A stretch of 64,000 nucleotides of DNA. It comes from Bacteroidota bacterium. GTDB lineage: Bacteria; Bacteroidota; Bacteroidia; Palsa-948. Positions 2,825-4,636 of this stretch are shown piece by piece. The first letter of the stretch is position 1. The number at the start of each line of letters is the position of its first letter. The translations under genes were made by a program, and so were the position numbers. A model generated the notes under the pieces. That model did not search any database. It saw only the letters and a list, made by a program, of their open reading frames with translations, and had not been told where the DNA came from. Where the stretch lies: assembly GCA_023251675.1 (NCBI GenBank), contig JAHEYJ010000001.1:1671-65670 (forward strand). Reading direction: 5' to 3'.

Positions 2825-4246
2825 GTGCGCAGTTCCTTCAACAAAGCCCAAATCGTTTCTGAAGATGCTGATGAACTTGATTTCTTTTACGGCCCCGGTG
2901 ACGAGCGCAAGAAAACAATTCTGCAAAACAACAGCGTGATCCAAAGCACGCGTTATTTCTCAGGAGACTACGAAAAAACAATTGCAGGCAGCAATGTTAC
3001 CGAAGTACATTACATCAATAGCGGAAGCGGTTTGGCAGCCATGTATGTAATTGAAAACGGAAACGGAGCCATGTATTATCCATATACTGATTACCTTGGC
3101 TCCATACTCACTGTTACAGATGATCAAGGCAACTCGGTAGCCGAACAAAGTTTTGATGCATGGGGAAGAAACAGAAATCCAGATGACTGGACGGATCAGA
3201 ACATACCAAGCGTTCCCTCATGGTTGTACCGTGGATATACCGGACACGAACATCTGTCGCAGTTTGTTCTGATTAATATGAACGGGCGTATGTATGATCC
3301 TGTGGTGGGAAGGATGTTAAGCCCGGACATAAATTTGCAAGACCCCTGCTTTTCGCAATCACATAACCGATATTCCTATGTTTTTAATAATCCGTTAAAA
3401 TTCATTGACCCATCAGGAATGGATGCTGGAGGTTATGACTGGATGGAAAACGGAATGCCATATAATTTTGCAAGCAGTTACGATAGAAATGCAATGCAGG
3501 AAGCAAATGGAACAAGTTATGAAGCACAACAACGACAAAAGTATGCAGATCTAACGCCTTTCGGAGGATATTCTACTACTAGAGGAGAGTATGAAGGAGT
3601 TATTAAGTATAGAATAAATGGTGATTTAGTTTTTGTTCCGGGATCACAATATAATCAAGCTGGATATTTATGGTCAGCCAATAATTCTAAAGGAGAAATA
3701 TTAAGCGGAGGAGTTACTATCGATGTAAAAGGACCTGAAGTATTGGAAAAAGCAAAAGAGAAGCATACTATGTCATTAGGCGAGAAGTTTACTTCCTTAG
3801 AAGGGTGGGTCCCTTTTTTATCTGAATATAATTACTATAAATCCATTAAATCCAGTGGTTCCTTTATGGAGTATCTTGCCTATGAACAAGCACAAAGTGG
3901 ACCTTCTACACTTATAACTGGGGCTCCGCCTATTCCAAGTTTTAGTGGGGGGAATATTTTAAAGTTAGGGACCGGATTGCGAGAGCTTTTTAAGGCAGGG
4001 GTAAGAAATAACTCCATAATTAATGTCAGAAATGTTTTATTAAACAATGGCTTTAAACAAGGATTATCATTAAACAAACAAGGATATTTGTTTACTAATG
4101 CAATCGGCGAGGAAGTTAGAATTATGAGGCGAGCTGGAGCTTGGGACATTAGAATGATGAACAAAGGTGGTAATTATCTAGACGAGTTTGGAAATTTTAA
4201 TAGTCCACCGGAATTAACACATAACATATTCTTATATGCACATTAA
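2825..4246 (+). CDS. RHS core fragment fused to a variable C-terminal toxin domain (tip B, unrecognised family)
   Basis: Same conserved N-terminal core as 635-1984 (…NMNGRMYDPVVGRMLSPD…NRYSYVFNNPLKFIDPSGMD). It is followed by a ~290-aa AT-rich C-terminal domain with no similarity to tip A. Confidence 0.75.
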   Translation: MRSSFNKAQIVSEDADELDFFYGPGDERKKTILQNNSVIQSTRYFSGDYEKTIAGSNVTEVHYINSGSGLAAMYVIENGNGAMYYPYTDYLGSILTVTDDQGNSVAEQSFDAWGRNRNPDDWTDQNIPSVPSWLYRGYTGHEHLSQFVLINMNGRMYDPVVGRMLSPDINLQDPCFSQSHNRYSYVFNNPLKFIDPSGMDAGGYDWMENGMPYNFASSYDRNAMQEANGTSYEAQQRQKYADLTPFGGYSTTRGEYEGVIKYRINGDLVFVPGSQYNQAGYLWSANNSKGEILSGGVTIDVKGPEVLEKAKEKHTMSLGEKFTSLEGWVPFLSEYNYYKSIKSSGSFMEYLAYEQAQSGPSTLITGAPPIPSFSGGNILKLGTGLRELFKAGVRNNSIINVRNVLLNNGFKQGLSLNKQGYLFTNAIGEEVRIMRRAGAWDIRMMNKGGNYLDEFGNFNSPPELTHNIFLYAH

Positions 4247-4636
4247 ATGAAAAACATTGAAGAAATTCGAGAGAAATTATTATTATTGAATAATTTTCAG
4301 GAATGCATAATTGAAAGTATTCGTTTTTTGAAATTTGCGACAACAATTGAAATTGATTTCGATTATATATGGGATGATAACAAAAACGTCAGAAAGAACT
4401 TGAAGGACAAAAAAATAATTACTTTAAGGTTTGAACTCGTAGAAAAATTTCTCCTCGAAAATATATTTACTCAAGGCATTGATAATGTTGATTTTCTGAA
4501 TTGGAGCTATAACGAAATAGCAATGATTAAGATTGAAGATGGTAATGATAAAAATAGGGTCAAGATATTTTGGGAAATCAATAGAAAGAGAAGTATTGAA
4601 TTGACATTTTCCTCCTTGGAAGTAATTAGTACTTAA
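4247..4636 (+). CDS. putative immunity protein for tip B
   Basis: 129-aa ORF starting 1 nt after the toxin stop. AT-rich, no signal peptide, and in the position typical of polymorphic-toxin immunity genes. Confidence 0.5.
   Translation: MKNIEEIREKLLLLNNFQECIIESIRFLKFATTIEIDFDYIWDDNKNVRKNLKDKKIITLRFELVEKFLLENIFTQGIDNVDFLNWSYNEIAMIKIEDGNDKNRVKIFWEINRKRSIELTFSSLEVIST

Follow-up and report, generated by a model that had tools for sequence, protein, structure and literature searches.

An orphan RHS cassette of a Bacteroidota bacterium with a toxin/immunity pair of predicted PT7/PIM7-like fold

The gene pair and its conservation

Two adjacent genes of a Bacteroidota bacterium, located at positions 2825-4636 of a stretch of 64,000 nucleotides (nt) of contig JAHEYJ010000001.1 (assembly GCA_023251675.1; the whole stretch is called the window below), were analyzed as a putative toxin/immunity pair. 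The first open reading frame (ORF) opens with the end of an RHS core and continues into a variable tip, and the second one encodes a small partner protein (Table 1). Both ORFs were present where a reading made from the sequence alone (the sequence-only reading) had placed them and were tightly coupled, the TAA stop codon of the toxin ORF (4244-4246) directly abutting the start codon of the immunity gene at 4247.

Table 1. Features of the gene pair and of the repeat that overlaps it
Feature	Position	Strand	Remarks
Repeated array segment	2407-3419	+	3' two-thirds of a small ORF with a type IX secretion system (T9SS) tail, spacer and RHS core tail; common to unit A
Toxin ORF	2825-4246	+	GTG start, 473 amino acids (aa)
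C-terminal RHS core fragment, aa 1-199	2825-3421	+	TIGR03696; ends in PLKFIDPSGM
FIDPSGMD motif, border of conserved core and variable tip	3401-3424	+	Sequence reading; paralogue identity ends here
Linker / pre-toxin region, aa 200-374	3422-3946	+	~175 aa; no recognisable family
Toxin domain, aa 375-473 (nt 3947-4243), with stop codon	3947-4246	+	Basic, ~100 aa, alpha+beta; PT7-like predicted fold
Cognate immunity gene	4247-4636	+	ATG start, 129 aa; acidic, cytoplasmic; PIM7-like two-layer beta-sheet predicted fold

The motif FIDPSGMD (aa 193-200) closes the match of the ORF to the RHS-associated core domain (Rhs_assc_core), which covers aa 136-199 (nt 3230-3421, E = 6.5e-14). When the whole tip (aa 195-473) was scanned against Pfam, NCBIfam, PADLOC and PHROGs, only Rhs_assc_core was found, and the Pfam profile search matched no toxin or immunity family with either the tip or the 129-aa protein. 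The ~100-aa C-terminal domain and the 129-aa protein also gave no match in these four collections, whether a single sequence or a profile was used. Matches of the tip and of the 129-aa protein to PDB sequences (TLR5, antibody chains) were attributed to chance. The tip behind FIDPSGMD was therefore as free of known toxin motifs as it had seemed from the sequence, with Pfam, NCBIfam, PADLOC, PHROGs and the PDB sequences all blank.

The composition of the region was compared with the mean G+C content of the window (0.433, standard deviation 0.043 in windows of 390 nt). The G+C content was 0.435 in the RHS core part, 0.374 in the linker, 0.350 in the toxin domain and 0.272 in the gene of the 129-aa protein, and values of 0.28 or lower were found in only 0.55% of the 390-nt stretches of the window. 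Both genes had been called strongly AT-rich; the shift is strong for the immunity gene, as claimed, and only moderate for the tip, which did not support that part of the description.

The tip had also been described as one toxin domain of ~290 aa. It turned out to be a composite of a linker and a toxin domain, since its relatives share either its last ~100 aa or its first 57 aa. Only four relatives were retrieved when 5.8 billion proteins were searched with aa 195-473; three of them (P0002-P0004) share only the last ~100 aa, and in one of the three this domain follows a PT-HINT pre-toxin domain. With the fourth (P0005), the similarity is limited to the 57 aa that come next to DPSGM (nt 3419-3589; BLASTP, 58% identity, E = 2e-20), and its C-terminus is different. 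Hence, the part of the tip conserved in relatives as a toxin domain is aa 375-473 alone. The linker had no match in Pfam, NCBIfam or the PDB sequences and is unrelated to that of the neighboring tip A described below; its start may be a reusable module, for instance for entry or translocation. The P0005 locus (L004, 1097-2837, on metagenome contig ERZ27315199) is an array that also encodes a protein with a Colicin_D domain.

A profile of the toxin domain was then searched against 1.84 billion representatives (E ≤ 1e-3), and 115 protein clusters were matched, 91 of them at E ≤ 1e-10 and 43 at E ≤ 1e-30. The near-full-length matches all ended between 0 and 11 residues from the C-terminus, in proteins of ~100 to 2,507 aa. 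The remaining matches were fragments, with a few weak ones in multiple stretches (e.g., P0105) that resemble unrelated repeat proteins. RHS_repeat, DUF6443, SpvB/FG-GAP or PT-HINT modules were present in all six of the long members that were scanned. In the alignment of 62 members, residues R402, E429, R432, R436, W440, D441, R443, N446, N450, D453 and H466 (numbering of the 473-aa ORF) were conserved in at least 85% of the sequences, and the copy of the window keeps every one of them. The family is basic, with a median isoelectric point (pI) of 10.2. One 123-aa protein from JGI (P0115) matched both the toxin profile, with its first 31 aa, and the immunity profile; it is probably a gene call that runs from an overlapping toxin end into the immunity frame.

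No homologues of the 129-aa protein were found when its single sequence was used as a query; they surfaced downstream of the toxin homologues. At two of these loci (L001 and L002), downstream ORFs of 129 and 138 aa were similar to the protein of the window (BLASTP, E = 3e-17 and 2e-15, respectively). Furthermore, the toxin-profile search led to six genome loci, belonging to a Flammeovirgaceae metagenome-assembled genome (MAG), a second Bacteroidota MAG, a Pyrinomonadales MAG, a Gemmatimonadaceae MAG, Promicromonospora iranensis and one unclassified MAG, and an immunity homologue was encoded directly downstream in all six (hidden Markov model, HMM, E from 1e-13 to 1e-39). Altogether, the homologue lay directly downstream of the toxin in nine of nine complete loci, and its start was also present in a tenth (L003), whose contig is truncated. 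The loci span four phyla: Bacteroidota, Acidobacteriota, Gemmatimonadota and Actinomycetota. The stop codon of the toxin and the start codon of the immunity gene overlap by 4 nt (ATGA or GTGA) in seven of the nine, whereas the two codons abut in the window (gap of 0 nt) and are 8 nt apart in L006. At the Flammeovirgaceae locus (L005), the toxin ends an ORF of more than 2,000 aa that extends past the start of the locus, and an ORF for an IS200-like Y1 transposase (6861-7409) lies behind the immunity gene.

The immunity profile matched 28 clusters; every one with a source name was a "hypothetical protein" and none carried a Pfam domain, the named sources including Promicromonospora, Sinomonas, Cellulomonas and a Cytophagales MAG. 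The conserved residues of this family are E19, N85-W86 (in an INWG motif), E90, W109-E110 and R113, and its median pI is 4.7, opposite in charge to that of the toxin. In agreement with the cytoplasmic location suggested earlier, the 129-aa protein has no N-terminus resembling a signal peptide, its residues 4-13 being modelled as a helix.

The standard mark of toxin/immunity pairs is a conserved synteny combined with translational coupling. Since both were found here, the synteny being kept across four phyla, the conclusion that the orphan RHS cassette at 2825-4636 holds a genuine toxin/immunity pair is well supported by the sequence comparisons. The C-terminal position of the domain, the polymorphic-toxin modules of its carriers and the partner encoded downstream all point to the pair at an RHS tip that the sequence-only reading had proposed.

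The orphan RHS setting

The toxin ORF is an orphan rhs cassette and not a complete, deployable RHS toxin gene, because it has neither an RHS shell nor a trafficking domain. RHS_repeat was absent from it in the Pfam scan, and no YD-repeat shell or N-terminal trafficking domain was found upstream. Its frame opens only at 2780, after a stop codon, so that ~135 aa precede the core domain, and the GTG start lies 35 nt past the end of an upstream ORF (2320-2790) that occupies a different frame. The full-length parent rhs gene was not found in the 64-kb window, and other assemblies break inside the repeated core.

The cassette is part of an array whose units follow the order of a signal-peptide/T9SS ORF, an RHS core tail of ~200 aa, a variable tip and an AT-rich immunity region. 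A local alignment of 217-1229 with 2407-3419 showed 87-100% identity, dropping to ~72% across the final ~170 nt and ending at the DPSGM motif. A third, partial copy of the repeat was found at 4810-5109 (71% identity). This ~1-kb repeated segment is likely to be a substrate for recombination with other rhs copies.

The small ORFs of the array (124-600 and 2320-2790; 156-158 aa) encode a signal peptide, one YD motif (DFTYDAxGNRVLRQY-like) and a Por_Secre_tail T9SS sorting domain (E = 2e-12). A third copy of them, at ~4720-5193, lacks any ATG, GTG or TTG start upstream of 4846. The neighboring tip A (635-1984) ends in a Colicin_E5 ribonuclease (RNase) domain (aa 362-440, E = 4e-12). Behind it (1989-2288), the G+C content is 0.25, and a single frame of ~100 codons begins 5 nt past the stop codon; because it is broken by an in-frame stop at 2124-2126, this frame may be a disrupted immunity gene. 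Directly after the array, 5205-7586 encodes a protein of 793 aa that carries, besides SBBP beta-propeller repeats and an Ig-like domain, the T9SS sorting domain CHU_C; this protein and the Por_Secre_tail ORFs suggest a Bacteroidota host.

Predicted folds and the PT7/PIM7 module

PT7/PIM7 is a module of Bacillus cereus that has been described from 2021, with the structure 8OWU released in 2024 (Nachmias et al., bioRxiv 10.1101/2021.10.19.465003). The toxin, PT7, is a domain of 78 aa found at the C-terminus of polymorphic toxins, LXG-type and others, in Bacillus, Listeria and Acinetobacter; it was toxic to yeast as well as to bacteria, and its topology is reported to be unlike that of any other known protein (bioRxiv 10.1101/2021.10.19.465003). 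Purified mutants were non-specific endo-deoxyribonucleases (endo-DNases), dependent on Mg2+ and sensitive to EDTA, which left tRNA untouched; D37A, H47A and H73A each abolished toxicity (bioRxiv 10.1101/2021.10.19.465003). The immunity protein, PIM7 (117 aa), lies over the catalytic pocket; residue D17, at the tip of its alpha1-betaA loop, plugs the catalytic site and forms salt bridges with catalytic residues (bioRxiv 10.1101/2021.10.19.465003).

Template-free AlphaFold2 models were built for the toxin domain from 62 sequences (predicted local distance difference test, pLDDT, 85.9; predicted template modelling score, pTM, 0.78) and for the immunity protein from 27 sequences (pLDDT 86.3, pTM 0.81), and the two were searched independently. 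The predicted structures of both partners matched the two chains of the PT7/PIM7 crystal structure, the toxin model having the PT7 fold and the immunity model the PIM7 fold, with its gene in the downstream position. The immunity model is a two-layer beta-sheet, which ruled out the idea of a leucine-rich-repeat-like immunity protein, based on the weak sequence match to TLR5. The PT7 family was defined by DIAMOND hits at E ≤ 0.001 and at least 80% coverage, and no such sequence homology to PT7 was seen here; neither PT7 nor PIM7 has a Pfam family. On the predicted structures, the pair is thus a remote sister family with the PT7/PIM7 fold and not a member of the PT7 family. The candidate had been presented as a new pair; this stands insofar as the family is unannotated, but not for the folds, which the models assign to the described module.

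For the comparison of sequences, PT7 and PIM7 were recovered from plasmids of Bacillus and Listeria. On one Bacillus cereus plasmid (NZ_CP095378; L012, 1411-1647), a stand-alone PT7 copy annotated as "transposase" has Ala at D37 (RIASPD) and Asp at H49, and lies upstream of a PIM7 gene whose product differs in one residue from the L011 copy; this PT7 copy may be an orphan toxin that has lost its activity. The same label, "Transposase", is attached to PDB chain 8owu_C.

The toxin family and PT7 have in common an N-x-L-D-x-x-G motif (NYLDEFG in the window, NPLDVNG or NPLDKLG in PT7) and a C-terminal His with I or P behind it, H-x-(I/P). From these motifs and the order of the strands, and not from a superposition, provisional equivalences were derived: the PT7 residues R33, D37, H47, H49, D52, D59 and H73 would correspond to R432, R436, D441, R443, N446, D453 and H466 of the window, respectively. 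In the immunity family, the invariant E19 aligned with D17 of PIM7 in a weak hhalign alignment, which fits the same plug mechanism but is no proof of it by itself.

Proposed action, alternatives and comparison with known systems

Taking these results together, the region is read as an orphan RHS tip and immunity cassette, with a toxin of PT7 fold that most likely cleaves nucleic acid and an antidote of PIM7 fold, at a probability of roughly 0.6. The orphan ORF is probably not used as it stands, because it lacks an RHS shell and a trafficking domain; the homology of ~1 kb to the neighboring unit (87-100% identity) would allow the tip to recombine onto a full-length rhs gene, which is presumably located upstream of the window. 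Once this has happened, the RHS shell would enclose the tip, which would be cut off at the DPxG motif and passed into a competing cell. Autoproteolytic release of the tip at a DPxG motif is established for RHS/Tc proteins, and FIDPSGMD is expected, by analogy, to be the release site here. In the cytoplasm of the target, the basic domain would act probably as a nuclease, DNA being the first guess from the analogy with PT7. The active site would be remodelled relative to PT7, with Arg and Asp in the places of its Asp and first His, and with the C-terminal His retained among invariant Arg, Glu and Asn residues. The acidic 129-aa protein would bind the toxin 1:1 and occlude its basic active-site face, and the invariant Glu19, in the loop between helix 1 and strand A, may act like Asp17 of PIM7.

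Several results weigh against this interpretation, and alternatives were considered beside it. With the toxin model as query, Foldseek returned no significant match from the PDB and did not recover 8OWU; hhalign gave a probability of only 26% for the toxin and PT7 and only 0.2% (E = 0.25) for the immunity protein and PIM7, and hmmsearch of the toxin-family profile against three PT7 sequences scored 1.8-6.8 bits over ~20 residues. The missing PDB match and the weak profile-profile scores would be expected if the fold matches were coincidental or artefacts of modelling, the pair being an unrelated and wholly new toxin/immunity family, and small beta-rich domains can indeed converge on similar folds. 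Nevertheless, the similar sizes of the partners (78 and 117 aa for PT7 and PIM7; ~80-100 and 129 aa here) and the NxLDxxG and terminal His motifs common to both families make such a coincidence improbable. A further difficulty concerns the chemistry, for in the provisional motif alignment, of the essential PT7 residues D37, H47 and H73, only H73 is kept (as H466), with Arg in the place of D37 and Asp in that of H47. With a catalytic set altered to this extent, an RNase or other activity is possible. The cassette and its immunity logic would be the same, and the toxin would be an RNase or another non-DNase that uses E429, R432, R436, R443 and H466, independently of the PT7 metal site. A site rich in Arg, Glu and His would also fit a metal-independent RNase; small microbial RNases carry Glu/Arg/His catalytic sets, which the invariant Glu, Arg and C-terminal His resemble, and RNase tips, such as the neighboring tip A, are common in rhs-type arrays. 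RNases of the BECR fold (barnase, EndoU, colicin E5-D, RelE) were considered owing to the Glu/Arg/His pattern, and neither this fold nor a Pfam Ntox or colicin match was found. The only characterized relative, PT7, is a DNase inactive on tRNA, and E429, D441, N446, N450 and D453, which could hold a metal, are still invariant, so that an activity of this kind is considered unlikely.

The last objection is that neither a full-length rhs gene nor a secretion apparatus was available in the window. In a third alternative, the toxin ORF could be an inert remnant, never expressed or recombined, with only the immunity gene functional, as an "orphan immunity" against neighbors that carry the toxin. The absence of a shell and of a trafficking domain, the GTG start only 35 nt after an unrelated ORF and the apparently broken immunity candidate of tip A, which implies some decay of the array, are in favor of this view; it appears doubtful given that the frame of 473 codons is intact, with all the conserved residues of the family, and that the long near-identical segment shared with the neighboring unit keeps the cassette competent for recombination. 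Moreover, it concerns deployment only and is compatible with the toxin/immunity assignment. Returning to the PT7-fold nuclease, a broader conjecture can be put forward only tentatively, as somewhat unlikely: the PT7 fold could underlie a larger superfamily of polymorphic-toxin domains in at least six phyla, in which the present branch (at least ~90 clusters) swapped the metal-binding Asp and His for an Arg-rich site and might perform a different reaction, e.g., metal-independent RNA cleavage or some other attack on nucleic acid, with the same immunity fold and plug.

The analysis provides a functional lead, that of a PT7-fold nuclease, for a family of soil and aquatic Bacteroidota, Actinomycetota, Acidobacteriota and Gemmatimonadota whose members have so far been "hypothetical proteins" or unannotated RHS tails in the databases searched. 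The profiles supplied can be used to annotate ~100 toxin clusters and ~30 immunity clusters. The pair is not a wholly new kind but an unannotated, multi-phylum relative of the described PT7/PIM7 module, which, known from Firmicutes and Proteobacteria, gains a remote sister family whose active site is remodelled. It thereby offers a natural experiment on how the small PT7 fold achieves catalysis and how the immunity protein tracks the toxin. The general picture of RHS toxin arrays is left unchanged.

Orphan rhs-CT/rhsI and cdiA-CT/cdiI cassettes are known downstream of full-length rhs and cdiA genes. Like these arrays, the present one consists of tandem units in which a conserved core ending in DPxG leads into a variable tip, with the immunity gene tightly coupled to it, and the homology between units stops exactly at the motif. 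Unlike them, its units add the small ORF described above, with its signal peptide, single YD motif and T9SS sorting domain, and the parent gene lies outside the window.

Regarding the immunity protein, a second comparison can be made with the Neisseria NGO_1070-like protein (structure 5V77, Pfam PF22300), whose fold has been described as a "double sheet layer" (DSL-Imm) immunity fold and whose homologues are encoded beside MafB toxins (PMC9424270). Their genes, like that of the window, adjoin polymorphic toxins, but the partner toxins differ. PF22300 was not matched by the 129-aa protein, and only weakly (E = 0.002) by one of the 27 members of its family.

The closest comparison is with PT7/PIM7. 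Both systems have a toxin that forms a small domain at the C-terminus of polymorphic toxins, an acidic immunity gene of ~120 aa follows directly downstream, and the immunity protein has an acidic residue in the loop between helix 1 and strand A. The differences lie in the toxin, its carriers and its hosts: HMM and DIAMOND-type searches revealed no sequence homology of the window family to PT7, the domain of the window carries one more helix at its N-terminus, its beta3-beta4 loop is shorter, and its family is strongly basic (pI ~10, vs. 6.9 for PT7). Its carriers are RHS or PT-HINT proteins instead of LXG or pre-toxin TG proteins, and its hosts are Bacteroidota, Actinomycetota, Acidobacteriota and Gemmatimonadota, whereas PT7 has been reported only from Firmicutes and Proteobacteria.

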